From positions 1 through 64,000 of IMG/VR virus record IMGVR_UViG_3300029319_009044: 64,000 nt of DNA. One strand, given 5' to 3'. The notes beneath the pieces were generated by a model. That model was given only the letters and a program-made list of their open reading frames with translations. It was not told where the DNA came from and ran no database searches. The stretch is from a virus. This document shows, piece by piece, positions 6,210-55,322 of the stretch (the first letter of the stretch is position 1; each line of letters opens with the position of its first letter). Position numbers and translations under genes: made by a program.

Positions 6210-6220
6210 ATACATATTTA

Positions 6221-35437: not shown

Positions 35438-37273
35438 ATGGCTAAATCAAATAAAGATAACGAATTTCTAGAGTTTAACTTACCTCAAAACGCATATGTT
35501 GCTTTTGATGCTGTAAGTCTAAAAGATTATATAGTTAATAGACTTAATACAAATGAAAAGTTTACTGATCAAAATTATGATGGTAGTAATTTAGCTGCTG
35601 TAATAGATATTATTGCATATTCATATCATGTTTTGTTATTTTATTTAAACCAGACAGCCTCTGAAGTTAATTTTAATCAAGCTTCTATTTATGAAAATAT
35701 GAACAAGATAGTTAAGCTGATTGGTTATAAACCTTCTGGTAAACAAACATCTATAGTTCCTATTAATGCAGTTGGTTCAGCTGACATGGCTATAGGTAGT
35801 TATACCATAAGAAAAAATTCTTACTTTTTAGCTGATGGAATTCAATACAATTTTATAGATGATTATTCTTTTAATAAAACAACTACTGGATCAGAAACTA
35901 TAAAAACATTAAACGATACAGTAGTTTTATATCAGGGTACTGTAAAAGAATATCCTGATTATATAGCTCAAGGAGAAGAGTTTGAGCTTTTACCTATAGT
36001 TGTAAAAAATGTAGTAGATACCAATACTGATAAGTTTATAGCAGATAATACTATAGATGTATATGTAAAAGAAGCAGGTAACAGTACATACTATCTTTAT
36101 AAAGAAGTTGATAGTTTATATCTTTCTAATTCTACAGAAAGGGTATATGAAAAGAGGCTAAATGAAAATGGATTTTATGAAATTAAATTTGGAAGCGGTG
36201 TTTTTGGTAAAAAGCTAGCTGCAGGTGATATAGTTTCAGTAAATTATCTTCAATCAGATAATGCTCAAGGAATAATTAGTAAAAATGTAATAAATGGAAA
36301 TAAAATATTCATTTATGATTCACTAAGACAAAGAAGTATTTTTCAAGATACATTTGCTAATAAAGATGAAACAACATTTATCGATAATACTAATAGTTCA
36401 CTCTTAACTATAAATAACCCTCAAGCTTCTACTTCTCTTTCAGATGAAGAGACAGTAGATGAAATACGTAAAAATGCTCCTAAAGCATTTGCTTCTCAAT
36501 TAAGATTAGTAACTGAGTCTGATTATGAGTCTTTTATAGAGAAAAATTTAGCTAATGTTACTAATAGTGTAAAAGTTGTAAATAACGATTCATACATAAA
36601 TGAATATATAAAATATTTTTATGATATATGTATTGATCCAAATAAAGTAAATAGAGTTTTAATAAATCAAATTAATTTTGCTGATTCATGTGATTTTAAT
36701 AATATTAATGTTTTTTGTGCTCCATCATTTACTATTACAGAGGATAAAGCATTTCCCCCATATCTCTCTGAATCATTTAAAAATTTATTAGTCGAAACTT
36801 GTAAGGATAGAAAGATGGTCTCAAATACGGTAGTTCCTCGTGATCCGATTTACATGGCTTACGGGTTAGGTTTTACTAATTCAGCTGATTTAACTCTAGA
36901 TATTTTAGATCAAACTTTTCTTTATATAGTACGAGAAGTTAATAATAAAATTAACAAAGATACACTAAAAGCCAGAGCTGGTAATTTGATAAAAGCATTC
37001 TTTAATCCAAGTAATAATAATCTTGGTCAAAATTTAAAACTAAGTGAATTAGCTAATGATATATTATCTTTAGAAGGAGTTAGAAGAATTTATACTAAAA
37101 ATGATTCTAATGATAGTAGTATAGATACTGTTTCTTTTTTATCCTTTAATCCGGTTTACGAAACAAGCGATATAGCTTTAGTTAATCAAGATATAACTTT
37201 ACCATATTTCAAGTTCCCATATATGTATTCGCCGTTATCGATAACTAATCGTATTAAAGTAATAGATGAGTAA
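35438..37273 (+). CDS. gp6: baseplate wedge subunit gp6
   Basis: FTD.NY.GSN...IDI.AY, LIGYKP, YEIKFG.G.FG..L, E..DEIR.NAP..F..Q.RLVT..DY. Confidence 0.88.
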   Translation: MAKSNKDNEFLEFNLPQNAYVAFDAVSLKDYIVNRLNTNEKFTDQNYDGSNLAAVIDIIAYSYHVLLFYLNQTASEVNFNQASIYENMNKIVKLIGYKPSGKQTSIVPINAVGSADMAIGSYTIRKNSYFLADGIQYNFIDDYSFNKTTTGSETIKTLNDTVVLYQGTVKEYPDYIAQGEEFELLPIVVKNVVDTNTDKFIADNTIDVYVKEAGNSTYYLYKEVDSLYLSNSTERVYEKRLNENGFYEIKFGSGVFGKKLAAGDIVSVNYLQSDNAQGIISKNVINGNKIFIYDSLRQRSIFQDTFANKDETTFIDNTNSSLLTINNPQASTSLSDEETVDEIRKNAPKAFASQLRLVTESDYESFIEKNLANVTNSVKVVNNDSYINEYIKYFYDICIDPNKVNRVLINQINFADSCDFNNINVFCAPSFTITEDKAFPPYLSESFKNLLVETCKDRKMVSNTVVPRDPIYMAYGLGFTNSADLTLDILDQTFLYIVREVNNKINKDTLKARAGNLIKAFFNPSNNNLGQNLKLSELANDILSLEGVRRIYTKNDSNDSSIDTVSFLSFNPVYETSDIALVNQDITLPYFKFPYMYSPLSITNRIKVIDE

Positions 37274-39473
37274 TATAAAGACAGATTACGCTCTTTTTGA
37301 TGTAATAGATTATAAGGGAGAAAATAAGCTTTCTTCATATAATTTAGATCTTACACCTTTAACATTTAAAGCTAGAATACCAGAGGATGATGGGAGAGAT
37401 ATACCACTAAACGATCAAAAGGTAACTTTTGAGTTTGGTGATGGTACTTTTGGTAGTAATCTTTCTTCTAGCCATGTTTACCAATATCCCGGTGAATATA
37501 CTGTTAAAATGATTATAAGGGATTGTAAAAATAACTCAGTTTTAGCATACTACAGTACACCCGTAACTATTCATGACTTTGTAAAAAACACCTTTTCAGT
37601 AGAATTATCTCCAACTAATGCTACTACTATAGGTCTTTCAGCAGGTCAAATAACTGGACCTTTTACAGTAAAATCTCAAACTCCTTTTTATCAAGATTTT
37701 CAAGATATATACTATAGTATTTCAGGGTGTGACTTTGATAACTATTTTAATCTACCTACTAATAGATTTAATAGTTTAAAAAAATATTTTTCTATTTACG
37801 AGAGAGTATATTTACCTACTTTATCTAGCTTTGAATATGTTGAATTAGAAAAAATTAGCCTCACTGGGGCAAATATATATGCTAGAGTAGCTTCTAATGA
37901 ATTATTAGTACAGGGTTTGAGTTCAAGTTTATCAAGTGTTTATGCAGGTATTTCAGGTTCAAAAGAAATTTATATCAAAACTGATGATCAATCAGATAAT
38001 TTAAACATATCGTTTTTTAAAGATAGGTCTAATATTTTTGCTGATAGCTTTACAGGATATAAGAATAATGATTATACTAATAACCTTAACATTACTCTAT
38101 CATCTAATGTATTACCTACTTCTGCTCAAACACTTAGTGCTATAAAATTTTCTTCTAATGGAATATTTGGTGAAGGTATAGAGCAAGAACCGTTTCCAGT
38201 AAATAAAGTTCAATATAAAGGTTTAGGTATACCGTTTATTATTGCACCAGTCAATAACGATAACTATACTATGAAAGCTTTATCAGCAGGTACCCCATTT
38301 TTTGCTTTATTGTCAGGTGATGTTGAAAGTAGGCCTGCACACTATAGAGCAGCATTAACTGTGCCAACTAGTTATTATACTATATCTAGTTTAGCTAACA
38401 CCTTATCATCTATAGATACTAATTTTTGGTATAGAGGCGTACTTACTTTTGATGACTCCTTTAATAGTGAAATATCTGGTAGCCCTATAAGGTTATTCTT
38501 AAGTGCCGGTAATCAATATTCATTTAATACTAATTCGCAACTTTTGTCTACAGTAACTGGAACAACAGTTATATCAGCTTATCCTAAAAATTATTACGAG
38601 TTTTATAAGCATAATGAAAACTTTGACTTTGAAAGAAATATTAAAGATATGCGCTTTCAGGATATATTATTAGATAAAAATATATTCTTTGATGATTTTA
38701 TAGGTACTATATTTGGTAATGTAAGTAGTAGATATGATATACTAGGTAAAAAGCTTTATGAAAAGGTCTTTAACTTTGTTTCAAATAATGCTGATATCGA
38801 TATGTGTGATATTAATGCATTGGTAAGTATGTCAGATATGACTGATGACTATGGAATTATATTTGATAAAGCTTTAGCTCAAGAACCAGCAGAAGTAAAA
38901 AGATTTTTAGATACCTTAAGTGTAAATTATAATAAATTTAGAGGAGGTCAAAATAAATTTGATGAAAACTTCGATCCACAAGGAACTACTACTAAAGCAG
39001 TATATGGTAAAAATTTAGGAGATAAGATTGATTCCTTAACTTATGAAGTTACTGCAGGTAATGATTTAGTAGCATATGAAAAATTTAGTAACACGTATTT
39101 ACGTTTAAATACGTTTCAACCATTAAGTTCTCTTAGTGCTGTAAATACTGGAGCTGTAGCGAAAAATACTAATACTTATATGCTCAGTGATTATAGTAAT
39201 GAATCCTATAATGCGACGCTTAGTGGTGGTGATACATGGGGTTGGGGGTTAATTTTACCAGATACTTATAATATTGAAACTGTAAATAAATTTTATGAAT
39301 TTTATTCTTTATCAGCAACGTATGATAATACTGTTCTTAATGGTTTAATTGATTATAATAATGGTTTAACTACAGTTAATTTTACTGAACCTTTAGATGG
39401 ACTAGAAGGAGACAATAATATCTTTGATATTGTTATACGAAATTCGTTATTTAGTAGTCTATCTCTGTTTTAA
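37266..39473 (+). CDS. baseplate-associated protein with N-terminal PKD/Ig-like domain
   Basis: FGDGT.....SHVY.YPG.YTV (PKD); directly after gp6. Confidence 0.6.
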   Translation: MSNIKTDYALFDVIDYKGENKLSSYNLDLTPLTFKARIPEDDGRDIPLNDQKVTFEFGDGTFGSNLSSSHVYQYPGEYTVKMIIRDCKNNSVLAYYSTPVTIHDFVKNTFSVELSPTNATTIGLSAGQITGPFTVKSQTPFYQDFQDIYYSISGCDFDNYFNLPTNRFNSLKKYFSIYERVYLPTLSSFEYVELEKISLTGANIYARVASNELLVQGLSSSLSSVYAGISGSKEIYIKTDDQSDNLNISFFKDRSNIFADSFTGYKNNDYTNNLNITLSSNVLPTSAQTLSAIKFSSNGIFGEGIEQEPFPVNKVQYKGLGIPFIIAPVNNDNYTMKALSAGTPFFALLSGDVESRPAHYRAALTVPTSYYTISSLANTLSSIDTNFWYRGVLTFDDSFNSEISGSPIRLFLSAGNQYSFNTNSQLLSTVTGTTVISAYPKNYYEFYKHNENFDFERNIKDMRFQDILLDKNIFFDDFIGTIFGNVSSRYDILGKKLYEKVFNFVSNNADIDMCDINALVSMSDMTDDYGIIFDKALAQEPAEVKRFLDTLSVNYNKFRGGQNKFDENFDPQGTTTKAVYGKNLGDKIDSLTYEVTAGNDLVAYEKFSNTYLRLNTFQPLSSLSAVNTGAVAKNTNTYMLSDYSNESYNATLSGGDTWGWGLILPDTYNIETVNKFYEFYSLSATYDNTVLNGLIDYNNGLTTVNFTEPLDGLEGDNNIFDIVIRNSLFSSLSLF

Positions 39474-39488
39474 GGATAAATATGTTTA

Positions 39489-42359
39489 ATGGATAACATT
39501 ACTACAGGGTTTCCAAATGTTAATCAATCTATTACTAATCCTAATGTAAATAGTGATGAAGCATTAGATAAATTTGCACCTTATACTTTTTTACAGTTTA
39601 TCGAAACTGTAAGTGAAAGCTATAAGCCTGAGACACTTACTGCTTTCTACAACAACTACTTAAATAAGTGGAATACTAGAAATAAAGGTCTTAGTACTTC
39701 GAATGCTGATACTATAGTAGATAGATACAGAGACTTCTTAAAAGATATTACTTTAAATTTTTCCTCTAATGCAGAGAGAAAATTCTTAACTCAATTAGAT
39801 TTTACTGACAAATATGATTTGCAAATAGCAATGTCATTTTATAGTAAGAAGATAAGAAATATAGTTACTTACTATAAAAAGAAGCGTAACACTCTACATT
39901 ACACATTAACTAAAAGTAAAGTTAAAGGAAGTAGTATAGGGGTAGAGCAGGCAACTAAAGATTTAGTTATTGATTTTTTAGAAAATAGAAGTACAGGTGA
40001 AATCGATTATAATATTTCAGACTTAAAGAACAATCTATCTGTTTCAATAACAGAATATTATGATAATTATTCTCAATATTTTAATAAGCCTCCAAATGTA
40101 GAGGAGTACGGAGCTAATTATAAAGAGTATGAACCAGGTGGTTTACCAGAGGGTGACAATTTGTTTTTATCTTTAGAAACTGAAATTATAGATAAAATAT
40201 TTTCTTCGGTATCACAAAATATAAGAAATTTAAAAGAAGCAAATAATGTTCTAGATTCTAAAAAGAAACAAACTGAAAAGTATATAGGTACTGATTTTTA
40301 TTACCTTTCTACTGATAGAAATGGTAAGCCTGATATTGGTTTATTATTTGAAGCTGAAAAACCTTATGCAAACTTTTTAAACCAAGATTATCCAAGTACT
40401 GCCTCAATTTTTTCTGATGATATTATAAGTGAAAGAGACTTAGGATTTTTTAGATCTCACAATTCTGCAATAGCTACTATCCAAGGAAAAAGAATAGATT
40501 TTTATGAGAAGACTTCATATAAACCTAACCAACTTTACATATTTCCTGATCCTAATTTATTTACTAATAATAAAGGTATTTTAACTTTTATAGTAGATAC
40601 TACAGGTTCAATAAACAATAGAAGTAAAGGTGTTGCTATTAATCAACCTAACCCAGACAAAGAAAGTACCACATTCATAGGCTATTCTTCTGAAATAGGT
40701 AAAGAGAGAAATTTAGATACTGATCTTTCTTATCTTTATGATCAAGGTTATATCGATCAAAACAAAAAAGATATTTTTGGTAATATTTTTGGTTTAGTAA
40801 AAGATAATAATTATTATAGAGAAAATTTAACTACTGAAACTCCTAAAAATATTAAAAATTTAGTTATTAACGGTTATCAGTTTTTTGATGATTTATATGG
40901 TGAAGGTTTTAGTTTTAATTACGGTACAGAAGATTCTACCACTTATTCAGAAACTTTACGTTCTGGTATATCGTCATTTACTGGTGGGTTAACTGCAGGT
41001 GGTGATCTTAAGCCTGATACGCCCTTATCAGCTTATCATATTTTTAGTAGATTTTTTACTCCTTATCAAGAATTAAAACTTCCTACAAACTATCTTGAAG
41101 TAGATTATACAAGACCAGAATCTATTACATTTAATGCTAATGTATTAGAAGGAGCTTACTTTAGATTCTCAGATAATGAAACATTAGCAGATCCTGTTAG
41201 ATCTGGATTAAGTGCATTTACCGATTCTGCAGATCAATTTTATTTTTCCGATTTAGTAGAAGCAGGAATAGGTTATTATGATGGTAATTCTACTGTAGTT
41301 AGAGCTTTATGTGATAATACTGGCCCGGGTACAGCGTACACTGCAGGTGTTTCACTATATCAAGGGTTTTCAGGTAACTTTACTTATAATGTTAGGTTAT
41401 CTGGTAGTAATGGAGTTGAGAATTACGATGGTAGTAGATTTACTGATAATATCATATTTGATTATAAGCAAGCTGAACGAAGTTTTGATTATAAGGATGA
41501 TGTTTTTGATGTAACTGCCTTTTCTACTGTTGATAGTTCCAAAGAAAGCTTATTTGATCGTAAAAAACATTTAGGTAAAATTTACATAAAAAATGTAAAT
41601 AAAAATTCACAATTCCCAGCTGTAAAAGAATTAACTGATACTCTTACTTATTTATCTAGTAAATATAACTCTTCAGTATGTAACGAGCTTTCAACTAAGG
41701 TAGTTGATTTTGATATTATATATCAAACTCTCTTCATTGAAACAAGTTCATTTTTAGTTACTGAAAGAACTGTATATGAAAATAATGAATTTATTTCTCC
41801 TAATACATTTACCAATTCTTTGAATATAAATACTAACTTTTTTGATAAAGTGAGTAATAGACTTAGAGTAGATAGTAATGTATTTTTTGTAAAAATGGAG
41901 AGAGAGCAGAATGATTTTAAGGATATTAGACTATATCCTAAAATTTATAAGTATAGCTATAAAGATGATAAAACTGAGCAAATATTTCCAACTACAGGTA
42001 ATACTGCTGCTGCAGCTTCTTGTTATTTTGATTTATCTACATTTAATTCTGTTTATGTTGAATGTGGTAAGCCTAATTTAACTTATAGTAGTGATAACGA
42101 ACAATTTAATTTAGCAGTATTATTAAAAGATCAGAATAAAGCTCCATTATTAGTTAATTACTTATTTGAATATAAAGATAGTGTTAAATTTTTAGATTCT
42201 GCTTCTTTCGAGAGTAATAATAGTAGATTTACAGATAATTTCTTTAATTCTAATACAGGTTTAATAGATTTAAGTAATGTTAATTTTGCATTAACATCAC
42301 AAACTCCGCAAGTTTCAGCCTTTTTTACATCAGCATCATCAGCAGCTTTAATATTATGA
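39489..42359 (+). CDS. large virion structural protein, unknown function
   Basis: Late promoter; in the baseplate block. Confidence 0.55.
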   Translation: MDNITTGFPNVNQSITNPNVNSDEALDKFAPYTFLQFIETVSESYKPETLTAFYNNYLNKWNTRNKGLSTSNADTIVDRYRDFLKDITLNFSSNAERKFLTQLDFTDKYDLQIAMSFYSKKIRNIVTYYKKKRNTLHYTLTKSKVKGSSIGVEQATKDLVIDFLENRSTGEIDYNISDLKNNLSVSITEYYDNYSQYFNKPPNVEEYGANYKEYEPGGLPEGDNLFLSLETEIIDKIFSSVSQNIRNLKEANNVLDSKKKQTEKYIGTDFYYLSTDRNGKPDIGLLFEAEKPYANFLNQDYPSTASIFSDDIISERDLGFFRSHNSAIATIQGKRIDFYEKTSYKPNQLYIFPDPNLFTNNKGILTFIVDTTGSINNRSKGVAINQPNPDKESTTFIGYSSEIGKERNLDTDLSYLYDQGYIDQNKKDIFGNIFGLVKDNNYYRENLTTETPKNIKNLVINGYQFFDDLYGEGFSFNYGTEDSTTYSETLRSGISSFTGGLTAGGDLKPDTPLSAYHIFSRFFTPYQELKLPTNYLEVDYTRPESITFNANVLEGAYFRFSDNETLADPVRSGLSAFTDSADQFYFSDLVEAGIGYYDGNSTVVRALCDNTGPGTAYTAGVSLYQGFSGNFTYNVRLSGSNGVENYDGSRFTDNIIFDYKQAERSFDYKDDVFDVTAFSTVDSSKESLFDRKKHLGKIYIKNVNKNSQFPAVKELTDTLTYLSSKYNSSVCNELSTKVVDFDIIYQTLFIETSSFLVTERTVYENNEFISPNTFTNSLNINTNFFDKVSNRLRVDSNVFFVKMEREQNDFKDIRLYPKIYKYSYKDDKTEQIFPTTGNTAAAASCYFDLSTFNSVYVECGKPNLTYSSDNEQFNLAVLLKDQNKAPLLVNYLFEYKDSVKFLDSASFESNNSRFTDNFFNSNTGLIDLSNVNFALTSQTPQVSAFFTSASSAALIL

Positions 42360-42892
42360 ATACTTATAACTTATCTATTTCTTCAACTAAAGACGATATC
42401 AATCAAAAGATAATTTTGAATGATATAGATTTATTTGATCTAACTGAAGTTACATTAGATATTTCTAACATATATACAGAAATATTTCCTAATTATTTAA
42501 GTATTGATTGGGGTGACGGTTCTCCTACTATTCAGCCTGATATAAAAATATATCGAGATTACAAAACAGAGTCAATATTTCCTGAACTTGATAAGGGAGT
42601 AACTCCAGTTACTTTTAGTAATAGTTATACCCATAGATATTTTCCTTCTTCTTATGCATTAAAAAAAGCGGTAACCTTCAAGATGAACGTGGGATATATA
42701 ACTGGTGAAACTTTGCAACTAAGCGCGCCTCTTGTAGTTAATTCACAAAGTTATTATGAAAATGTAGATGATATAGATATAATTGGATTAGATCTTATAA
42801 ATGATGTTAATAATAGTTCTAGAGTTTCATTTATAACTAAAAAGAACAATTATATAGTACAGCTAGATAACAAAACTTATAAAGAGAACTAG
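42356..42892 (+). CDS. virion protein with PKD-like motif
   Basis: IDWGDGS...H.Y. Confidence 0.55.
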   Translation: MNTYNLSISSTKDDINQKIILNDIDLFDLTEVTLDISNIYTEIFPNYLSIDWGDGSPTIQPDIKIYRDYKTESIFPELDKGVTPVTFSNSYTHRYFPSSYALKKAVTFKMNVGYITGETLQLSAPLVVNSQSYYENVDDIDIIGLDLINDVNNSSRVSFITKKNNYIVQLDNKTYKEN

Positions 42893-42907
42893 GAATAAAT
42901 ATATAAA

Positions 42908-45256
42908 ATGGGATGTTTAGTAAAATCAAGTTTAAGTGCTTTAAGCTCAGTACAAGGTACTGTATGCCCTACTGATTTAACTTTAGATCAATATACACAG
43001 ACTTTTAATGGTGATTTTAAATTTAATTTTATTTCAGCACTTTCGGGTATTCAAGACTTTAAAAAATTAAATTTTACTAATTTTTACCTAACTACAGATT
43101 TTTTACTTGACGAGGTTACTTCGTTTAAAGAAATAAAAATAAAGCCAGAATCATTTTTTACTACTTTAAATTTTTCTACTTCAAGTGATAATTATTTAAT
43201 TTTTGAAGCTGCATCTTTAAGCTCATTTAAAACAGAAGATAACATTATACAAGCTGAATTTTACGGTACTACTTCTTTCACTAAAATTTTATCTGATGCA
43301 GATAATTACGAAATAAAATTTATTGATGATTTTACTTGCAGTGTTAGTACTATTTACAATAATATTAGATATTTTCTTGTAGTAAGTGATGATGAGCAAG
43401 ATAGCAATAATAGAAGAAGAGTCTTATTTGTAGCTGAAAATAAATTATCTTTAACTGGTAGTTATTTAGAGTATAATTTATTAAAATATAAAAGAGATAG
43501 CTTTATAAATTTATTTTCAAATAAAGGAGGGAAATATGCTATAGTAAATGACGGTGGAAAGTTATACGCTCAAAAATTAGATACTACTGCTAAGTTAAAT
43601 CAATTTTATGTAGCTAATAATTCTATAAAGCTCGATCAAGAAATAAACCTTACTGTACCATCTCCATATAATACCTCTTTTATTACATATGATAATGCTG
43701 GTAATGTAGACAATACAAAAAGTGATTTTAATTTACCTTCAAATTATCTATTTTATAGTAATAGTAATAAAGTAGAGCTAGACTTCAATTTTTATAATTT
43801 AAAAAACATAGTTAATACTCAAGATCAATTTACTTCATCAAATACATTGCTTTCTACTTCTGAAACTACTATTTACAGTCAAGACTTACGAAAATATACA
43901 TCTATATTTTCAGATATTGATAGCGAATATAATGAAGTGTTAGCTTTAAATTTCGTATATAATAACTTTGATTTAGTAATAAAACCCGGTACTACCTATT
44001 TTAAAGCTCCATCGTCAATGCAACCTTTTACAAAGCTCAATATTAATGATACTAAGTTTGTAAAGTGTGGTTCATTTGCTTTTAAGAGACCAGATTTATC
44101 TGATAGAGTATATAGATTAGATGACAACTCCATAAAAGATAAAAATATAACTTATCTTTGTACTTGGTTATCAGGAGCAATAGGTAAAGAAGGTATATGG
44201 GTTGATAGATATTATTACCCTGATTTAGTATCAAAAGAAACTGCTTTAGCTGCATCTCCTGTTTATAATGTTACCTATCAAGATTCAGTAGAAAATTTAA
44301 TAATGAGTAACTCTACTTTAAAGAGTTCAGTTGAAAAGAAATTATATTTAGATAAAAAGAGTGATTTAACTTTTGAGCCTGGTAAGAGATATAAGTATGT
44401 AAGAATATCAAAAGATGATTTTATAAGAGAGTCTCCTACTAATTTTTGTAAAACAGCTAGAATTAATAATAAAGTTAATAACTATTATACAACTATAAAT
44501 GACAACGGTGGCTTTACGTTAGGATTTACTATACAAAATGATACTGGTGATTTTTCAATAATTTCCGAAAGTAACGATATAAATGGAGGTATAGATTTTG
44601 ATAAAACAGGAAATAGCATAACCTTTACATTTAGTTTATTTGACAATAGTACGGTGGGTAATACTTTAGAAAGTAGAATTTTACAAAATACTTTTACTCA
44701 TACATTTACTATTGACCCTTACGAAAAGAATAATATATTTTTATCGTTTAATGCAATTAGGGGAATTTGTAATTTATATTTAAATTCAAATATTATTTAT
44801 AATTTTGAGATAAATGCATACCAACTTTATACCAAGAGAATATTGTTTGGAGATATATTTTTAAACTGGAGCGAAGGCAGTGAAAATAAAAAACGAGAAA
44901 TTTTATTTAATGAAGCTACTTCAAAGCAATTTATATCTGATTTATTTTTAACTCTTGAACCTTTAGAAGAATACAAAGAATTAGCTTATGTATTTGGAAC
45001 TAATATAGATAATATTCAAGACTTAACTATTTCGTTACCTTGCGGAATGAGAAATCTTACCGATACTATAAAAGCAGTAAATTCTATTAATACTAATCTC
45101 AAAAATAAGAGTAATGTTATAGATATTAATATAAAGAATATAGAAATAAGTACAGATATAGAAAATGAAGTTAGAGATGTAGTATTATCAAATATAGTGA
45201 AATCTCTGCCTAAAACTACAGTAATAAATAACGTTAAATTTAATAATTACAAATGA
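42908..45256 (+). CDS. large virion structural protein, unknown function
   Basis: Late promoter; beta-rich, possible LamG-like C-terminal part. Confidence 0.55.
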   Translation: MGCLVKSSLSALSSVQGTVCPTDLTLDQYTQTFNGDFKFNFISALSGIQDFKKLNFTNFYLTTDFLLDEVTSFKEIKIKPESFFTTLNFSTSSDNYLIFEAASLSSFKTEDNIIQAEFYGTTSFTKILSDADNYEIKFIDDFTCSVSTIYNNIRYFLVVSDDEQDSNNRRRVLFVAENKLSLTGSYLEYNLLKYKRDSFINLFSNKGGKYAIVNDGGKLYAQKLDTTAKLNQFYVANNSIKLDQEINLTVPSPYNTSFITYDNAGNVDNTKSDFNLPSNYLFYSNSNKVELDFNFYNLKNIVNTQDQFTSSNTLLSTSETTIYSQDLRKYTSIFSDIDSEYNEVLALNFVYNNFDLVIKPGTTYFKAPSSMQPFTKLNINDTKFVKCGSFAFKRPDLSDRVYRLDDNSIKDKNITYLCTWLSGAIGKEGIWVDRYYYPDLVSKETALAASPVYNVTYQDSVENLIMSNSTLKSSVEKKLYLDKKSDLTFEPGKRYKYVRISKDDFIRESPTNFCKTARINNKVNNYYTTINDNGGFTLGFTIQNDTGDFSIISESNDINGGIDFDKTGNSITFTFSLFDNSTVGNTLESRILQNTFTHTFTIDPYEKNNIFLSFNAIRGICNLYLNSNIIYNFEINAYQLYTKRILFGDIFLNWSEGSENKKREILFNEATSKQFISDLFLTLEPLEEYKELAYVFGTNIDNIQDLTISLPCGMRNLTDTIKAVNSINTNLKNKSNVIDINIKNIEISTDIENEVRDVVLSNIVKSLPKTTVINNVKFNNYK

Positions 45257-47376
45257 TAGACTATTTTAAATATACTACTGGTAATTTATTTACTCTAAGC
45301 GGAGCAGAATATGATGGACTGTTTAATATAACAGATGGAAAAGCATTCACCGGTAAGTCTTATTCTACATCATCTAAACTTTTAAGCGCAAGTCAGACTT
45401 TTTTAACTAATTGCTTTTTGAATTCGTTTGAATTCGATAGAACTACATCGCCAGTAGATAGTAATTTGATAGAACCTCCAATTATATCTCCTAGAAATAT
45501 AATAGATCAAAATTTTATAGATAGAAATTTACAAATTTTAAATATAAATAATTTGAAGATTTTTGCTCAAAATATTACTGCTAATCCTGATCTCTTTGAT
45601 TTTATAAATTCTGTAGAAAGTAAGGATAGTTACTTTTTAGGGCTGTCTAGTAGTTCTAAAGATATTCGCAATGATGATACTAAAGTATCTAAAACAAATA
45701 GCTTTCCTATTCAAATAGATCCTTTTTCATATATTGATAAAGTACCAGGTTTAGATGTCTTAGATGATACTAAGGATAGTATAATATTTGTATATGACGA
45801 TGAATCATACTACTATTTTACTACTACTTCTACTAATTCTTATACATTTTCTGGCTCCTTTGTAAACGGGGGCAGTTTACTTAGAATAGAAGAAGATGTA
45901 TTTCAAGGTGCAGAAAGATTTTCATATGATAATAATACTGACACGCTCTATGCAGTTACAAATAATGAAAATAACTTTACTTTAAATTTATATGATAATA
46001 GTTTTGTAGCTCCTTGCAGAGTGTTAAAATTAGTTGATCAAATTACTATTGATGATGAAATTGTTGATGGTAGAGTTAGTATAGGTAAAGACATAGTAGG
46101 GTATAGACACGTTGAAGATAATATTATAAAAATAAAACTATTAGTAAAATATACTTTTGAGGATATTATTAATATATTATCATCTAATCCTGCAGAAGAA
46201 ATAATAGATTTTGATATTAGAGATTCAGATGATTCAATATTAGTATTAACTTCTCTGAATGGCTTTGATGCAGAAGAATACTACCTCTATCATTTAGATA
46301 TTGATATAGTGAGTAAAGGATCAGGTAATTATATTTTACCGTTTACACCTAAAGTACTTAAAAGATATAAGCCAGATGTAAATTATGATAAAAAACCAGG
46401 TGAAGTTGATATTTATTTTTCTGGTAATGATTCTAATATTTTAACTATATACGACGAAGGGGCTGTATCTACTAGATTTATAACCAATCCAGAAAATGTT
46501 GCTGGGTTTCCATATAGTAAAAATTTATTATATCTTGAAGACATGTATTTTGATGGAACTCTTGAAAAGTTTAATACTATAGAGAAAAAATTTAATTCAA
46601 ATTTACTACCATCCAATAATTATAACAATTTAAACTTTTTAGTAGCTAAAAATAGTTCAGATTTATTTTATGTACTTCATAATATAGGAAGAATATATCT
46701 TATAAAAGAGAGTAAAATACCCTATAAAAGTTTTATTCCTAATGATCTTAAAACTTTATTTGAAAAAATAATTAGCTGTGAATCTAGTATAGGTATTTCT
46801 CTAAATAGTGAATTACAAAATATTATTAAAGATTCAGTAAATGTATTTTTAAATGCAAGTGTAATACCTTATGAAGAAATGCGAGAAGGTATACCAGTTC
46901 TAGGAAAATACGTATCATATGAAGGTATAGATATTAATTTTCGTAATCTAGAGTTTCATGAAAATGAAGAAATAAATTTTAATAATGTGTCGAGAGTTTT
47001 TAATGAAATTTATAACTTACAAAAAACTATTTTTAATATTATAACTACAGGTGAGGATATTGAAGTAAGTGATTTACCTCCAGTTTTAATTGAAGAAGAT
47101 ACATTAACTGAAGTGCTGAATAATCAATATACTAGTGGAGGTGAGTATATAGTTAGAGAGACTGGAGAGGAATACATAGGTTTTTATCATATACACCCTG
47201 AAAAAGGAGCTATGGTAGGACCTCTACATGTTGCAACACCTCATAATTACTTAGACCCATTTATTGAGCAAGATAATGAAACCTCTTCTATTATTAATCA
47301 AACTACTATTCAAAGCACTTCTAGAAGCTCAACATCTAGTGGTACGTCTAGTGGTACATCAGGATCTTCATATTAA
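45253..47376 (+). CDS. virion structural protein, unknown function
   Basis: YT.G...Y.G module at both ends; Ser/Gly tail ending in SSY. Confidence 0.55.
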   Translation: MIDYFKYTTGNLFTLSGAEYDGLFNITDGKAFTGKSYSTSSKLLSASQTFLTNCFLNSFEFDRTTSPVDSNLIEPPIISPRNIIDQNFIDRNLQILNINNLKIFAQNITANPDLFDFINSVESKDSYFLGLSSSSKDIRNDDTKVSKTNSFPIQIDPFSYIDKVPGLDVLDDTKDSIIFVYDDESYYYFTTTSTNSYTFSGSFVNGGSLLRIEEDVFQGAERFSYDNNTDTLYAVTNNENNFTLNLYDNSFVAPCRVLKLVDQITIDDEIVDGRVSIGKDIVGYRHVEDNIIKIKLLVKYTFEDIINILSSNPAEEIIDFDIRDSDDSILVLTSLNGFDAEEYYLYHLDIDIVSKGSGNYILPFTPKVLKRYKPDVNYDKKPGEVDIYFSGNDSNILTIYDEGAVSTRFITNPENVAGFPYSKNLLYLEDMYFDGTLEKFNTIEKKFNSNLLPSNNYNNLNFLVAKNSSDLFYVLHNIGRIYLIKESKIPYKSFIPNDLKTLFEKIISCESSIGISLNSELQNIIKDSVNVFLNASVIPYEEMREGIPVLGKYVSYEGIDINFRNLEFHENEEINFNNVSRVFNEIYNLQKTIFNIITTGEDIEVSDLPPVLIEEDTLTEVLNNQYTSGGEYIVRETGEEYIGFYHIHPEKGAMVGPLHVATPHNYLDPFIEQDNETSSIINQTTIQSTSRSSTSSGTSSGTSGSSY

Positions 47377-47384
47377 ATAAAGTT

Positions 47385-49616: not shown

Positions 49617-49645
49617 TATTTAAAGGTTCTGACATAAATAATAGT

Positions 49646-50815
49646 ATGCCTGAAAGTTTAGAGAATCAATTTATATCTGATTTATATACTTCTCTTTTAC
49701 ATTTAAGTGGTGCAGAGTTAGGTGAGAAAGGTCCTTTAAATAAAGTTTTTGACGGCGCAGGTAATTCTACCGGGTTAGCGTTAAGTGGTGATAGGGTAAT
49801 TGTAAATAACTATATTTACCCCAAAGGTTTTACTACTAGAGACCCTCTAGAATGGTTAGATAGTTTTTATCCTATAGGTAGTATTCAATTAACACTAGAT
49901 GATAATAATCCAACTGACAGAATTGCTGGTACAGTATGGACGAGGGTAGCAGAAGGAAGATTTTTAGTAGGAACTGGTACTTTAACTGATAAAAATGGAG
50001 TTACAAGAGAATTTTGTCCTGGTGGAGCTGAAGAAGAAGCTAATGATCAACGAAATGGAAATGGTGATTTAGCTGGTGAGTATACAACTACTTTAACAGA
50101 AGAAAATTTACCAGCACATACCCATGATGTTAATATAGGAGCTACAGATGTACAAATATCTAATCCTGCAGGAAATAGTACTTCAACACAATCACCTAAT
50201 GTTGGTACAGTTAATTCAACTCAAGATTTTCAAGAGCAACAAAGAGCTAGACAATCTCTAGGTAGAAAAGTATATGCATATCCTGGTGAGTATGATTCTT
50301 CTCTTTTAATAGATTTTAGAAGTGCAGCATTTAGAGATGACTGGAGAGATTATCCATGGTTGTATGCTTTAGACTTTGGTTTTGATAGAGGAACTGCTGC
50401 TAATTATTCAGCTGCAACAAGAGCACTTTATACTACTAGTTGGGCAACTAAATATCAATTTAAAGAAATGATAGGAATATGGAACGGTGAAACTAGGTTT
50501 GTATCTGATTCAAAGGTTCAGGTAGGAGTTACAACTGGTGGTAGAGGCGGTCGTGTAGTAACCGGTGAAATAAGATTATCTAAATCTCCTTATCAGTATG
50601 CCTTAGAATTAGGTGCTGTTGATATAGGAAATGCAACAGCTGGGGATTTTGTTAAACAAAATAATACAGTACCTACAGTTACAGCACCATCTGATATAAT
50701 AAATAGAGATGAGAGTGTTAACAATACTAGAGTATCAGCTTCAGTAGGTGAAAGTTTAGCACATAATAATATACCTCCATCATATGGTGTTTATGTATGG
50801 AAAAGAATAATGTAA
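49646..50815 (+). CDS. gp10-C-terminal-like baseplate/fibre protein (paralogue of 47385)
   Basis: Same N-terminal ~150 aa and C-terminal HNNIPPSYGVYVWKR. Confidence 0.65.
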   Translation: MPESLENQFISDLYTSLLHLSGAELGEKGPLNKVFDGAGNSTGLALSGDRVIVNNYIYPKGFTTRDPLEWLDSFYPIGSIQLTLDDNNPTDRIAGTVWTRVAEGRFLVGTGTLTDKNGVTREFCPGGAEEEANDQRNGNGDLAGEYTTTLTEENLPAHTHDVNIGATDVQISNPAGNSTSTQSPNVGTVNSTQDFQEQQRARQSLGRKVYAYPGEYDSSLLIDFRSAAFRDDWRDYPWLYALDFGFDRGTAANYSAATRALYTTSWATKYQFKEMIGIWNGETRFVSDSKVQVGVTTGGRGGRVVTGEIRLSKSPYQYALELGAVDIGNATAGDFVKQNNTVPTVTAPSDIINRDESVNNTRVSASVGESLAHNNIPPSYGVYVWKRIM

Positions 50816-50819
50816 GTTT

Positions 50820-52307
50820 ATGGCAAATATAACTATAGTAAAATTAAAAGTTAGACGCGGATCAGATGCGCAACGAAAAACTATTGTTTTAGATCAAGGA
50901 GAAATAGGTTATACTCTTGATACTAGGCGTTTATTTGTTGGTGATGGTTCAACTTTTGGAGGACAATCAGTAGGTACTAAAAATATAGGACCTTTCGCAA
51001 ATGTAGCAAGTTTAGGACCTGATAGCTCTCCAGGTATGCAAGTAGGAGATATAGGATATGCAGATAGTAAGTTATATATGCTTACATCTACTAATTATAA
51101 CGATTCGTTATCTGGTTATGCATATATAGGTAATTTACCCGATGATACATTTTTAGAATTTGATTCAAATAATAAACTTACTATTAGAAAAGAAGCCTTT
51201 AATGCAGAATTTTTTACTCCTACATTTTTTGGGGAAGGTTTATTATCTGCTGCAGGTGGTGTAGCTTCAGTTAACACTAATAGTGATTATTTTGAGATAT
51301 CAGCAAGCTCAATTACACCTGTAGCTAATTCGATTACCGAAAGAGAAATTAAAACTACAGCTTTATCTTCAGGATTAGTAGGCGGTAATAGTACTCCTTT
51401 AAAAGTTAATATTGACCCTGAACAATTTGAATTTGATGTAAATAGTAAAATTAAATTAAAATCTTTAGGAGCTACAACTATACCGGTATCGAGTTGGGCC
51501 GGTCAAGATGGTAATAACTTAGTAGGAAGTGGTTTATCTATTGATGCTATTACTAATAAACTTAAAACAGATTTAAGAACAGTTAATATCGATACATTTT
51601 CAGTATCTGATGGTAAATTATCTCTATTTGGAGCTACTTCTTCTGCTCAAGAATTTCCATTCTTAACTACAAAAGACGGGTTAATTAAAAAAATTCAAAC
51701 TTCTATTTATGATGTAGTAACTGGTACAGGAAGCAATACTAAGAGTGCTATACCTGTAGGAACTCTCTTACCTCATGCTAGAGCTTTTACTAATTCAGTA
51801 CCTGAAGGATTCTTACTTGCTAATGGTCGAAATTTAAGTCAAACTGAATATTCAGAACTTTATGATGTTATAGGTACTAGTTACGGTGCTGGGGATGGTT
51901 CTGGTAATACTTTTAGTCTACCTAACTTAACAGGCGGGGGCATGCCAGCCGTATTATATGGTGCAGGTGCTATAGCTCCTATAGCAGGAGATTTTACAGG
52001 TTCTCAAAAATTCTTAGATGGAGATACTAGTTCATCAGGTGCTATATTAAGCGGATTTGGTGTAAACTTTATAATAAAATATACTGAAGACCCTATTACA
52101 AATATCTTTAATGGAGCTCCTAATGCTGTATCTATTGAAGGAATAGGTAGAAATGATAACCAAGTATTTAAAGGTAAAGATCATACCGGTGCTACTGTTA
52201 GTTTAAGTTCTGCCGGTTTTATAACTTTTGCATTATCTGGAAATGTAAGGAATCCTGATAGTGATGGTGCATTTGATAAATTTGCAATTCCAATTTTTAA
52301 CTATTAA
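50820..52307 (+). CDS. tail fibre with Mtd-N-like anchor and tail-collar domain
   Basis: KVRRG.....L.QGE.GY..DT..LFVGDG; PVGT..P......P.GFLLANG..L...Y.ELY.VIGT.YG...F.LPNL. Confidence 0.75.
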   Translation: MANITIVKLKVRRGSDAQRKTIVLDQGEIGYTLDTRRLFVGDGSTFGGQSVGTKNIGPFANVASLGPDSSPGMQVGDIGYADSKLYMLTSTNYNDSLSGYAYIGNLPDDTFLEFDSNNKLTIRKEAFNAEFFTPTFFGEGLLSAAGGVASVNTNSDYFEISASSITPVANSITEREIKTTALSSGLVGGNSTPLKVNIDPEQFEFDVNSKIKLKSLGATTIPVSSWAGQDGNNLVGSGLSIDAITNKLKTDLRTVNIDTFSVSDGKLSLFGATSSAQEFPFLTTKDGLIKKIQTSIYDVVTGTGSNTKSAIPVGTLLPHARAFTNSVPEGFLLANGRNLSQTEYSELYDVIGTSYGAGDGSGNTFSLPNLTGGGMPAVLYGAGAIAPIAGDFTGSQKFLDGDTSSSGAILSGFGVNFIIKYTEDPITNIFNGAPNAVSIEGIGRNDNQVFKGKDHTGATVSLSSAGFITFALSGNVRNPDSDGAFDKFAIPIFNY

Positions 52308-52316
52308 ATATTAACA

Positions 52317-54020
52317 ATGTCGATAGAAATTTTAGAAAATACTTTAATTAAACTTCTAGTAAGAAGAGGTACTGATAATGATAGAGGTAATATCATTTTA
52401 GAAAGTGGTGAACTTGGATTTACTACTGATACCCAAGATTTATATATAGGTGATGGAGCTACTAAGGGAGGGTTAATCGTTGGTAACAAATATAAAGGAA
52501 AGGCAGGTAATGTTACATCTCTAGCTCCTTGTGTTACTGGAGATTATGCTTTTGAAACTGATACTAATACTCTTAAAATATTACAGGGGGGAACAGGATC
52601 TAATGCTACTGACTGGTTAAAAGTTGCTAACTTACTAAGTGCTGGTGATGGAACAATATCAATAGTAGATGATAAATCTATAAAAGTTGGAATTTTATCT
52701 TCTGGCAATTTTTCACCTGATTGTTTAGGAGATTCTCTACAAATACTATCTGATAAAATATCTTTAAGTTCTACAATAACTATAGATAGAATAAACCGGA
52801 AAACAACAACTGCTACTAGCTACTTAACTCTACCTTCAAAATTAAAGATAAACAGTATAGATTACGATTTCCCGAGTGTAGCACCTACTGATAATGCATT
52901 TTTAGGATCTAATTCGTCTGGTGTGTTAAATTGGTCTATTCCAGGTTTAGTTGAATCAGTAGTAGCACCTTCTACTGCTAGTGTTTTACCTGTAGGTACT
53001 ATTGTACCTTTTGCATCAGGTAGTGTTGCTGTGCCTTATGGCTGGTTAGAATGCGATGGAGCTGAATATGCAAGTAATTCTATATATTCAGATCTTTCAG
53101 CTGTTATACATACTGCTTATAATACTCCTGCTGCGACTGCAGATCATTTTAGAGTGCCTAATCTAAATGGTAAGGTGTTATATGGAACGTCTTTAGAAGA
53201 TCCAGCTACTAGTACATTAATGCCTGTAACTACAGCATCAAATACTAATACTTTTAGAAACCTTTCTGCTACAGGAATGAATTATATTATAAAAGCTATA
53301 GGTGGGGTTACTATTCCTACTTTTACTATAGGAAAGAACCTTTCAGCTTTTGTTACTACTCCTTCTGGATCTAAAAAGTATGATAAAACTGATACTGCTT
53401 TTAATCCGTTAAGCGGTTCAATTGAAATTGAAAGACCAGCTCCCGGACAAGTTGTATTTAATAACGCAGGTATTCAAACTGGAACTGATGGATTTACGTT
53501 TCCTGATGGTATACACCATGTAAAATATACTGTTACTGGTTCAGGTACAAAAGGAGGTGCTGCGCCTGGAGGTGCAGGAGCAACTGCTATTGGTTATCTT
53601 TCAGCTACTCCAGGAACAAACTTTACTATAGAAGTAGGTTCAGGATTCAATTCTGCTGACGCTCCTGTTAATGGTAATCAATCTGCTATTAGACTTACAG
53701 ACGGTACTGCTATAGTAACTGCTGAAGGAGGAATATATGAAGGTGATAAAGCACAAAATGCTGCAGAAAATCAATTACAAATTCCAACAGCTATTGCAAG
53801 TGGGGTTATTGATACTTCAAACGCTCATGTACTTAACGGTTATGTTATACAAGGAGGATCAGGATTAAATGATACTAGCAGCGGTGGTGATGAAGAATCA
53901 ATTGGTGCAGCTTCATATTTTGGAACTGCTCCTGCTCCAGGTGGAGGTCAAGCTAGTCATGATGGCAATCCTATAGGTCCTCCGCCAGGAAATGGTGTTG
54001 TAATTATAGAATGGTCGTAG
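52317..54020 (+). CDS. tail fibre with Mtd-N-like anchor, tail-collar domain and Gly-rich tip
   Basis: VRRG...GELGFTTDT..LYIGDG; PVGTIVPFA...PYGWLECDG...FRVPNL; ends G.GVVIIEW. Confidence 0.75.
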   Translation: MSIEILENTLIKLLVRRGTDNDRGNIILESGELGFTTDTQDLYIGDGATKGGLIVGNKYKGKAGNVTSLAPCVTGDYAFETDTNTLKILQGGTGSNATDWLKVANLLSAGDGTISIVDDKSIKVGILSSGNFSPDCLGDSLQILSDKISLSSTITIDRINRKTTTATSYLTLPSKLKINSIDYDFPSVAPTDNAFLGSNSSGVLNWSIPGLVESVVAPSTASVLPVGTIVPFASGSVAVPYGWLECDGAEYASNSIYSDLSAVIHTAYNTPAATADHFRVPNLNGKVLYGTSLEDPATSTLMPVTTASNTNTFRNLSATGMNYIIKAIGGVTIPTFTIGKNLSAFVTTPSGSKKYDKTDTAFNPLSGSIEIERPAPGQVVFNNAGIQTGTDGFTFPDGIHHVKYTVTGSGTKGGAAPGGAGATAIGYLSATPGTNFTIEVGSGFNSADAPVNGNQSAIRLTDGTAIVTAEGGIYEGDKAQNAAENQLQIPTAIASGVIDTSNAHVLNGYVIQGGSGLNDTSSGGDEESIGAASYFGTAPAPGGGQASHDGNPIGPPPGNGVVIIEWS

Positions 54021-54052
54021 TTGCTTTTAATTTACTTTAATATAACTAAAGT

Positions 54053-54217
54053 ATGGAAGAAGTTATAGTAGAAGGTTTAGATTACGAAGATTTTGTTACA
54101 ATTAAAAATATACTAATAAACAATACCTCTTTTAAGTGTAATGAAAAAGATTTATTATCTAACAATCTTATAATTTTAGAAAAAATAGAAAAAATTATTG
54201 AGGTATTCAATGAATAA
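54053..54217 (+). CDS. hypothetical protein, 54 aa (MEEVIVEGLDYEDF...), below the ORF-track cutoff
   Basis: Manual translation; fills the gap between neighbours. Confidence 0.55.
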   Translation: MEEVIVEGLDYEDFVTIKNILINNTSFKCNEKDLLSNNLIILEKIEKIIEVFNE

Positions 54218-54225
54218 ATACTTGT

Positions 54226-54438
54226 ATGAATGCAAGTGTCTGGAAAGGTTGTTCTTTATGTGAAGAATTTTCAGACTATGTTTTGTATGATGATTTAAAT
54301 GATAGTATTCTCGTAAATATACATGAGGATTACTTAAAAATTATTAGGAAAGAATTAATGAAAATAGGATACTACTTAGTGTTTAAAACTAAGCTTGAGA
54401 TAACTAATTCCTATACCTGTACTTTTATAAAGGGTTGA
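54226..54438 (+). CDS. small hypothetical protein
   Basis: TAAATA-N5-ATG; CxxC near the N-terminus. Confidence 0.55.
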   Translation: MNASVWKGCSLCEEFSDYVLYDDLNDSILVNIHEDYLKIIRKELMKIGYYLVFKTKLEITNSYTCTFIKG

Positions 54439-54455
54439 GTAATTAAATATAATTA

Positions 54456-55322
54456 ATGGGCTTTCCAGTTGACATAAAACTACCTGATCAAGCGAGATAT
54501 TATACTTTTATAGAAACTAGTAAAAGATTTAATTCTAACTATGATATTACATGGTCTTTTGAGTATAAGCTTCCTGAAACAAGTATACCTAATAATAATA
54601 ATTATGAACTAGGATTTAGTACTTTTATTACTAATTTATCTGCTCCTTTATCTTCATTACCGGGTCAATATATTGGTGATCAAGATCCTGGTGTGAGCTT
54701 GTCAGCAGTAGCTCTTCTTACAGAAGGAGCAGCACCTGAACTCTTAAGAACACAAAGTGATGATACTTTGGTTTATGATGGAGGTACACTTAGTGGCTCT
54801 ATTGTAAAAATAGCTTTTGATTCAACCGGAAGATATGCACTTTCAGCTAGAGATGATAGACCAGGGGTAACTGAAGCTGAAATAAATAGGCAGTCTTTAG
54901 TAGTAAGAGATTATCAATTGAATGTAAGAGCAAATTCACCTCTTTCTACTATATCTAATGTTTTTAGTACGTTATCAACTAATACATTTAGAACGTTAAG
55001 ATTTAGGTATGTAAATTTAGGTCAAAAAGTACATATTGATTTTAGAGAAAGCGATACTACTGAATTTACCTTACTAACTACTATAAACATCGAACCAAGA
55101 TTAACTGGTTTAGATAATTTAGAGAATTTTTATTGTGGTTTCTCGCTTTCAACTCCAATTTCAACAACTGATACGGGGCTATCTGCTAGAGATTTCTTTT
55201 TACGTAATTTTAATGTAGAAGGGTATGTAGGAACAGAAGTTCTCACTGAAACTGTCATGACCCCTCCGTTATCTGTTAATTCTAATATACAGTATACTAC
55301 TGTAACTAATATAACCGCATAA
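54456..55322 (+). CDS. virion protein, possible ConA/legume-lectin-like fold
   Basis: Beta-strand pattern, IAFDS.G, LRFRY...V.ID; late promoter. Confidence 0.45.
   Translation: MGFPVDIKLPDQARYYTFIETSKRFNSNYDITWSFEYKLPETSIPNNNNYELGFSTFITNLSAPLSSLPGQYIGDQDPGVSLSAVALLTEGAAPELLRTQSDDTLVYDGGTLSGSIVKIAFDSTGRYALSARDDRPGVTEAEINRQSLVVRDYQLNVRANSPLSTISNVFSTLSTNTFRTLRFRYVNLGQKVHIDFRESDTTEFTLLTTINIEPRLTGLDNLENFYCGFSLSTPISTTDTGLSARDFFLRNFNVEGYVGTEVLTETVMTPPLSVNSNIQYTTVTNITA

Follow-up and report, generated by a model that had tools for sequence, protein, structure and literature searches.

What would make one word of three residues accumulate in the proteins on the outside of a virion? The question is raised by the first 64 kb (the window, that is, the whole stretch of DNA analysed) of a 170,908-bp virus record consisting of one contig, called G000 in the comparisons below. 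The record represents a T4-like myovirus with a G+C content of about 32%, whose gp6 and major capsid protein reach at best 27-34% identity to isolated phages, the nearest being cyanophages and Pelagibacter phage HTVC008M, and whose near relatives are abundant in marine metagenomes. The original prediction, made from the letters of the window, was that the tripeptide [LIV]-S-[AGS] is strongly enriched in outer virion proteins and may be a sequon for O-glycosylation of Ser. The present analysis confirms that the enrichment of L-S-[AGS] is real, highly specific, exerted at the protein level, lineage-specific and maintained by selection, and the reading of the motif as a glycosylation site is plausible.

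The motif is found in a baseplate and fibre module (35438-59317) that comprises gp6, a 735-amino-acid (aa) protein with a PKD domain, four large proteins without an assigned family, two gp10_C proteins, two fibres with Mtd_N and tail-collar domains, a 288-aa protein and a 1331-aa beta-helix protein. Motif counts for this tail module cover positions 37266-59317 and are given as observed versus expected for the following genes:

37266..39473, plus strand: 735-aa baseplate protein directly 3' of gp6, with an N-terminal Pfam PKD match, tandem immunoglobulin-like (Ig-like) beta-sandwich domains at aa 10-445 and a C-terminal alpha/beta region; 22 [LIV]-S-[AGS], including 16 L-S-[AGS]
39489..42359, plus strand: 956-aa tail-module protein, no assigned family; L-S-[AGS] 4 vs 1.4, orthologues 5-8
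42908..45256, plus strand: 782-aa tail-module protein; L-S-[AGS] 5 vs 1.1, with tandem pairs at aa 9/12 and 42/45
45253..47376, plus strand: 707-aa tail-module protein; L-S-[AGS] 4 vs 1.1
Start at 47385: 743-aa gp10_C/gp38 protein; one L-S-[AGS], not enriched
49646..50815, plus strand: 389-aa protein with a gp10_C domain; L-S-[AGS] 2 vs 0.5, orthologues 2-3
50820..52307, plus strand: 495-aa fibre protein with Mtd_N and tail-collar domains; 8 [LIV]-S-[AGS], of which 6 are L-S-[AGS] vs 1.2
52317..54020, plus strand: 567-aa fibre protein with Mtd_N and collar domains, paralogue of the preceding one; 8 L-S-[AGS] vs 1.2
54456..55322, plus strand: 288-aa protein without a Pfam family, for which a lectin-like nature is a lead only; 6 L-S-[AGS] vs 0.6
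55322-59317: 1331-aa right-handed beta-helix protein; no L-S-[AGS]

The excess survives composition-preserving shuffling (2,000 shuffles per protein), which the original prediction had named as its check. The 735-aa protein holds 22 copies of [LIV]-S-[AGS] versus 3.4±1.7 expected (3.3, with z=11, in a second shuffle test), the other named proteins reach p=0.0005-0.018, and the remaining 11 open reading frames (ORFs) of the tail module, pooled without the 735-aa protein, hold 50 versus 25 (z=5.3). The counts first made by hand were exact for 37266-39473 (22), 50820-52307 (8), 52317-54020 (8) and 54456-55322 (6), and the recount agrees on zero sites in GuaC and gp6 and on one in the terminase. 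The breadth assigned to the first position did not hold in full: L-S-[AGS] occurs 16 times versus 1.4 in the 735-aa protein and 37 times versus 9.0 (z=9.4) elsewhere in the module, whereas [IV]-S-[AGS] is raised in the 735-aa family only and stands at 13 vs 16 outside it. Taken together, the tail module contains 53 copies of L-S-[AGS] against 10.6 expected, an excess of about fivefold, versus 65 against 50.4 in the remaining 48,014 aa of the genome, where the minor excess is largely due to gp15, two ORFs flanking the portal and gp23 genes and three small ORFs. A scan of all 8,000 tripeptides in the tail module places LSA first (p=1e-13), LSS second and LSG ninth. With the 735-aa protein removed, LSA still ranks first (p=4e-9, about 4e-5 after Bonferroni correction), and outside the module (48,014 residues) none of the three is an outlier among tripeptides.

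The specificity of the word extends to each of its positions. Among x-S-A tripeptides, Leu is found 21 times versus 2.3 and every other first residue is at or below expectation; among L-x-A tripeptides, Ser is likewise found 21 times versus 2.3, and Thr 4 times versus 2.4. In the third position of L-S-x, Ala is raised 9-fold, Ser 4-fold, Gly 3.5-fold and Thr 2.3-fold, and Glu, Lys and Arg are depleted. Control motifs are flat in the tail module, including the reversed [AGS]SL as well as LT[AGS], LN[AGS], LD[AGS], LS[^AGS], [^LIV]S[AGS] and [FYWM]S[AGS], and L-S-[AGS] keeps z=8-12 when residues are shuffled locally in blocks of 10, 20 or 40. The reversed motif, the control motifs and the block shuffles exclude global and local composition bias as the source. 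Known sequons are not enriched in the module (N[^P][ST] 101 vs 103.6; D[ST][AILVMT] 33 vs 31.7). Among other words, D-G-Y is absent (0 vs 1.7) and [ST]GS is mildly raised (17 vs 8.4, z=3.2), compared with z=14.2 for L-S-[AGS]. A word acting in DNA, such as a restriction, Chi-like or methylation site, is also excluded: because the codons at the sites are diverse (TCA, TCT, AGT, AGC and TCG for Ser; TTA, CTT, CTA and TTG for Leu), the signal lies at the protein level.

The motif is retained across relatives, and its positions are not simply inherited. In orthologue sets drawn from 30 IMG/VR loci, all sets hold their counts even at 45-50% identity, for instance 5-8 sites for the fibre at 50820, 4-8 for that at 52317 and 4-6 for the 288-aa protein, each versus about 1 expected. 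The family of the 735-aa protein has more than 120 members, ranging from 93% to 28% identity and all enriched (5-17 L-S-[AGS] vs 1-3 expected); nucleotide and protein searches gave no match to it among isolated phages. Sites at window residues 23, 187, 279, 374/381 and 413 are deeply conserved in this family. At 30-36% identity, at least half of the sites lie in alignment columns that carry no site in the window protein, and at 53-60% identity, where alignment is reliable, 8-9 new sites are present versus about 3 expected. Over the whole family the motif falls into 69 distinct site groups versus 15-42 for the non-[IV] control motifs, a figure that alignment error inflates somewhat. The motif Ser is conserved in 82% of cases versus 56% for other Ser; where it is replaced, Thr (8.7%), Cys (2.4%) and Asn (1.6%) take its place, and Ala stays below the listing limit of 0.4%, versus 5.6% at other Ser. 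The near-absence of Ser-to-Ala replacement indicates that the hydroxyl (or thiol) matters and not merely small size.

Independent genomes reproduce the pattern. The relative G001 (154.6 kb, about 60% identity to the phage of the window) carries 144 copies of L-S-[AGS] versus 59.6 overall, with 15 vs 1.5 in its member of the 735-aa family and 4 vs 0.4 in its gp15 orthologue. The distant relative P0112, from another assembly (36% identity, G+C 37%), has 14 vs 1.4 in its counterpart of the 735-aa protein and, in a 565-aa protein nearby, 4 vs 0.5. A general trait of T4-like tail or Ig-like proteins is excluded by T4 (14 vs 16.0), HTVC008M (24 vs 17.5) and S-SRM01 (17 vs 12.3), and T4 Hoc, which has Ig-like domains, contains no site.

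Internal repeats had to be considered because the tail modules of other phages also yield very low tripeptide p-values, in the form of overlapping words (ITL-TLT, SFE-FEG-VFE) that derive from such repeats. A hidden repeat is excluded for the present tail module, in which there is no extended logo, the spacing is irregular and no internal BLAST match occurs. Repeat origin does hold, by way of exception, for a 3,476-aa fibre of G001 (124996-135426), where most of the 28 sites lie in the signature GNISAxGxLSAxGP..NYFxG; this signature holds two tandem copies of the motif and recurs every 100-120 residues or so. One copy of it (aa 466-510) lies in the hinge of a fibre in the window:

2502..6215, minus strand: 1237-aa fibre; the whole protein is not enriched (7 vs 5.2), and its cluster at aa 466-497 lies inside the repeat signature

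The clusters of sites first pointed out in this hinge, in the 782-aa protein and in a 795-aa protein at 11752 are all present. The excess at 11752 and 2502 is not significant individually.

The distribution of the motif within the virion is restricted to peripheral proteins, namely the baseplate periphery, the fibres and the add-on domains of neck and head proteins. There is no L-S-[AGS] in gp6, the portal, the putative scaffold, the 783-aa putative sheath or the 180-aa putative tube, the last two being named by position only. In gp15, all six [LIV]-S-[AGS] lie at residues 245-360, past the Pfam core (9-219), in an extension peculiar to this lineage. The motif combines residue specificity, a density that is kept despite positional turnover and independence of structural context, as expected of a short linear motif. 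That it behaves as a recognition motif centred on the Ser hydroxyl is well supported, and the earlier suggestion of a convergently kept recognition motif finds the same support in the specificity for Leu and Ser, the rarity of Ser-to-Ala replacement, context independence, gain at new positions, peripheral restriction and absence from other T4-like phages.

What would read such a motif? The favoured answer, to which we give a probability of roughly 45%, is that the Ser is modified, most simply O-glycosylated, by a conserved phage transferase. L-S-[AGS] would then be a short linear tag that one uncultured lineage of marine T4-like phages retains, and has gained again and again, in its peripheral virion proteins. 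Recognition would depend on the side chain of Leu, the hydroxyl of Ser and a third residue that is small and uncharged. As reader we favour a glycosyltransferase encoded by the phage and active in the cytoplasm, which would O-glycosylate the Ser while virions assemble; further transferases, from a swappable sugar cassette, may extend the glycan, and related phages would thereby carry different sugar coats at the same attachment sites. Modification of the Ser, its identification as a sugar and the choice of enzyme are inferred here. A fuller scheme can be proposed more tentatively, in which a lineage-wide virion O-glycosylation system with the sequon Leu-Ser-(Ala/Gly/Ser) would rely on a conserved priming transferase (a stand-alone or fused GT2 N-domain, or a GT9-fold enzyme) that reads dozens of sites on baseplate, fibre and add-on domains, and on a hypervariable cassette, located behind the conserved transferase, that varies the glycan from strain to strain and so would coat the infection apparatus with sugars in the manner of serotypes.

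Phage-encoded glycosyltransferases and sugar-nucleotide enzymes are present at three places in the record:

14176..15174, plus strand: GT9-fold glycosyltransferase, candidate reader; AlphaFold2 (AF2) model with a predicted local distance difference test score (pLDDT) of 88.4; Foldseek matches to 3tov (E 1e-12), WaaF (5e-11), WaaC (4e-9) and TibC (9e-9)
6221..8491, minus strand: sugar-nucleotide operon, by profile matches an RmlB-like 4,6-dehydratase, a small nucleotidyltransferase (rfaE domain II/TagD-like) and an RmlD-like reductase
97144-110048, outside the window: sugar island with a double GT2, a GT10-like gene, Gmd, a C-methyltransferase, an FkbM methyltransferase, WavE, an NTP-transferase-RpiB fusion and an epimerase

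The protein at 14176 belongs to a phage-only marine family with more than 1,100 members. The solved structures nearest to its model include a Veillonella GT9 protein, WaaF, WaaC and TibC; it scores 17.8 bits against Pfam Glyco_transf_9, below the cut-off of 22, and PF01075 is found in 15-50% of the members of its sister clusters. Its role as the candidate reader is weakly supported. Of an ADP-heptose donor pathway, the sole candidate component is the nucleotidyltransferase of the window, which is rfaE domain II-like at a sub-threshold 65.8 bits versus 181.5 and is without a counterpart in G001. A further pair outside the window, a GT2_5-family glycosyltransferase adjoining a stand-alone glutamine amidotransferase (68800-70121 of G000, both 73-75% identical in G001), more likely serves the modification of DNA than that of the virion.

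Comparison with G001 separates the genes that accompany the motif from those that do not. G001 retains the GT9-like protein (72%), a separate gene for the first GT2 domain (68%) and a 404-aa protein encoded at 77723-78937 in G000 (74%), and it is without the RmlD gene, the nucleotidyltransferase gene and all remaining genes of the island. At the syntenic site behind the conserved GT2 (90296-103937 of G001), with conserved flanks, about 13 kb of other sugar genes are found: an RmlC-like epimerase, an SDR protein, a B12-radical-SAM enzyme, an E1-type dehydrogenase, a DegT aminotransferase, another GT2 and a radical-SAM/SPASM protein. This cassette is wholly unlike the GDP-6-deoxyhexose and methyltransferase genes at the same site in G000. 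Since G001 keeps the motif without them, the sugar island and the RmlB operon are rejected as determinants of the motif. Swappable sugar genes next to a constant motif and a few constant transferases fit a conserved priming enzyme with a variable glycan; the same pattern also means that most of the sugar genes are not tied to the motif.

Several bacterial and phage systems offer precedents for parts of the proposed O-glycosylation. Glycosylated virion proteins are reported for phages Che8, Corndog and Myrna (PMC12363180, citing Freeman et al. 2023). The present case resembles these mycobacteriophages in having phage-encoded glycosyltransferases and virion structural proteins as proposed acceptors. 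The GT2 N-domain, part of a 528-aa transferase (97144-98730), also has matches among isolated phages only to glycosyltransferases of cluster-C, Myrna-type mycobacteriophages (Myrna, Catera and Nappy; 24-27% identity, E 5e-8 to 8e-6), and the same isolated-phage search gave no match to Che8 or Corndog. It differs in that the hosts are marine bacteria of Gram-negative type, that the similarity is weak (about 25% identity), and that the acceptors would be proteins of the baseplate and fibres, in which a tripeptide marks many internal sites. In mycobacteriophages the glycosylation sites reportedly lie in capsid and tail-tube subunits, and we know of no tripeptide sequon described for them. To our knowledge, virion glycosylation has so far been demonstrated only in a few mycobacteriophages.

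A second precedent is provided by TibC and AAH, bacterial autotransporter heptosyltransferases (BAHTs) that act in the cytoplasm and O-heptosylate adhesins at many Ser residues. They share the GT9-type GT-B fold with the protein at 14176, TibC being among the solved structures closest to it, and O-glycosylation at L-S-[AGS] would, like theirs, be a multi-site Ser modification of beta-rich surface adhesins before export or assembly. On the other side, lipopolysaccharide heptosyltransferases match the protein equally well or better, its Pfam GT9 score is sub-threshold, and a GT9-like homologue also occurs in a virus without the motif. BAHT enzymes, moreover, recognise a structural strand-loop-strand motif and not a tripeptide. 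A three-residue sequon that steers many glycosylations on surface proteins is known from HMW1C/NGT (N-x-S/T, in the HMW1 adhesin) and from the Bacteroidetes (D-(S/T)-(A/I/L/V/M/T)). HMW1C/NGT would further resemble the proposed enzyme in acting in the cytoplasm on a folded adhesin, whereas the Bacteroidetes system acts in the periplasm. Neither sequon is enriched in this tail module, and L-S-[AGS] is a different word. We know of no phage or bacterial O-glycosylation system with a simple Leu-Ser-small sequon. A 2025 review (PMC12645811) gives no defined sequon for PglL or Maf and, for other O-oligosaccharyltransferases, only contexts that are rich in Ala or have a C-terminal Ser. As that review lists no such word and the two known ones are not enriched, L-S-[AGS] would be new as a sequon.

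Other observations weigh against glycosylation. No known bacterial O-glycosylation system uses a sequon like L-S-[AGS] (PMC12645811), and the GT2 N-domain resembles Myrna-type enzymes only weakly (about 25%, E about 1e-6). The marine virus AG-345-L05, the only record of the phage database with a GT9-like homologue (38.6%), is not enriched (65 vs 51.8, no outlier ORF) despite that homologue; it is also without the GT2 N-domain, the 404-aa protein and the 735-aa family. The GT9-like gene as sole determinant of the motif is weakened by this virus: the GT9-like protein occurs in the motif-rich G000 and G001, and its homologue also in AG-345-L05. Neither the sugar cassette nor the RmlB operon is co-conserved with the motif, and both could equally serve DNA hypermodification or modification of the host surface. 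Enrichment does not extend to every outer protein of the module, two large ones at 55322 (0 sites) and 47385 (1 site) being exceptions. The deep conservation of fixed positions (aa 23, 187, 279 and 413) and the alternation of Ser and Cys (LCA) at a few sites fit a structural role.

Such a role is the best surviving alternative, unlikely on balance and yet a serious one. The word would be an intrinsic structural or assembly motif without covalent change, in which Leu anchors in the core, the Ser hydroxyl hydrogen-bonds to the backbone and the small third residue packs, or else it would contact a lineage-specific assembly chaperone. This would account for the many sites at fixed positions over deep divergence, for Cys and Thr as main replacements of Ser, for the giant fibres and the hinge at 2502 carrying the motif inside the GNISAxGxLSAxGP..NYFxG signature, and for the beta-rich character of all enriched proteins. 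The AF2 model of the 735-aa protein (69-sequence alignment, mean pLDDT 72.6) shows residues 10-445 well modelled as tandem beta-sandwich domains, with Foldseek matches to multi-Ig-domain proteins (the S-layer proteins SbsB and that of Haloferax, adhesins, filamin and phage Hoc), and 17 of the sites lie inside this region. In the model, the motif Ser is within one residue of a strand boundary in 47% of cases versus 38% for all positions and 43% for other Ser, and it lies in strands in 59% versus 46-49%; the motif Leu is in strands in 47% of cases versus 63% for other Leu, Ile and Val. This lack of positional preference argues against any single structural role, and strand capping and helix capping are rejected on the same ground. 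The strand-favoured beta-branched residues Ile, Val and Thr are not enriched, nor are Asp and Asn, which make the same side-chain turns. Homologous or analogous proteins of T4, pelagiphages and cyanophages, including the Ig-like domains of T4 Hoc, do without the motif, and its sites turn over as its density is kept.

It is improbable that L-S-[AGS] is a non-catalytic docking tag, patches of which would be bound by a decoration, cement or fibre-attachment protein or by a component of the host surface. Evidence from specificity and distribution is identical to that for a sequon, and one enriched protein, the 288-aa one, may be lectin-like, which is a lead only. Yet a three-residue site placed in strands and loops and in many orientations makes a poor docking surface, no candidate reader was found, and dozens of sites per virion protein are more than docking needs.

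Shared ancestry too old to detect is a similarly poor prospect. The enriched proteins would derive from one divergent beta-sandwich family with an inherited preference for L-S-small, spread by domain shuffling, and it is generally known that Ig-like domains are promiscuous in phage structural proteins. The 735-aa protein is indeed a string of Ig-like domains, the gp15 sites all lie within an added C-terminal module, and 50820/52317 and 47385/49646 are paralogue pairs, for which the claim that the carriers are mutually non-homologous fails. For the other enriched proteins that claim holds by BLAST, which relates only these two pairs and the tips of 11752 and 2502 and finds no similarity within the 735-aa protein. 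The flanks of the sites are no more alike than random windows of the same proteins (mean BLOSUM score -15.5 vs -15.6±0.5). There are 3-5 sites per domain of about 100 aa, at non-equivalent positions and with irregular spacing; new sites arise in diverged homologues; and even the paralogues 50820 and 52317 have only one of eight sites in common by descent. Chance or a composition artefact is effectively refuted by the shuffles and the 8,000-tripeptide scan: the motif was chosen after the data had been seen, and in the tail modules of other phages some tripeptides likewise reach very low p-values, but LSA ranks first of 8,000 even without the 735-aa protein, neither global nor local shuffles nor the reversed motif reproduce the signal, independent relatives replicate it, and the other phages' signals are repeat words whereas this one is not.

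Neighbouring genes of the module and window show features of their own. The fibre genes at 50820-54020 are adjacent paralogues, each with an Mtd_N domain (the N-terminus of the major tropism determinant) and a phage tail-collar domain. The beta-helix protein at 55322-59317 has separate biases (TC 16 vs 4.6, CxP 11 vs 3.1, EE 24 vs 10) that suggest a Cys-containing repeat. The 795-aa Gly-rich protein at 11752-14139 has periodic biases (FI 13 vs 1.7, IxG 31 vs 11, GG 65 vs 36), and its last 26 residues are 62% identical to the 1237-aa fibre at 2502-6215. The 105-aa product of 11177-11494, which has a faint match to holins, carries 4 [LIV]-S-[AGS] vs 0.5 expected and is 100% identical in G001, an unusual conservation for this pair of genomes. 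One further protein carries an excess:

15171..15968, minus strand: 265-aa protein, no assigned family; 4 [LIV]-S-[AGS] vs 1.0 expected (p=0.011), its G001 orthologue being likewise enriched

Elsewhere in the window, an Fe/Mn superoxide dismutase gene (9800-10426, both Pfam domains at E 1e-20 to 1e-34) adjoins a gene of the GMP reductase/IMPDH family (8493-9533). Outside it, a TnsA-like endonuclease gene (117984-118421 of G000) lies within the block of head genes, flanked by a 410-aa ORF and the prohead protease.

Even if glycosylation is not involved, so specific a three-residue word calls for an explanation. It has been selected throughout the history of a protein family and arises anew in unrelated proteins. 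If the tag is a sugar site, the host-recognition apparatus of an abundant group of marine phages would be coated with sugars that vary between strains, which would bear on host range, adsorption, avoidance of decoys and the stability of particles at sea. Many of the "cell-wall" sugar genes of marine phages would then gain a concrete function, and L-S-[AGS] would serve glyco-engineering as an acceptor tag that is both compact and portable.

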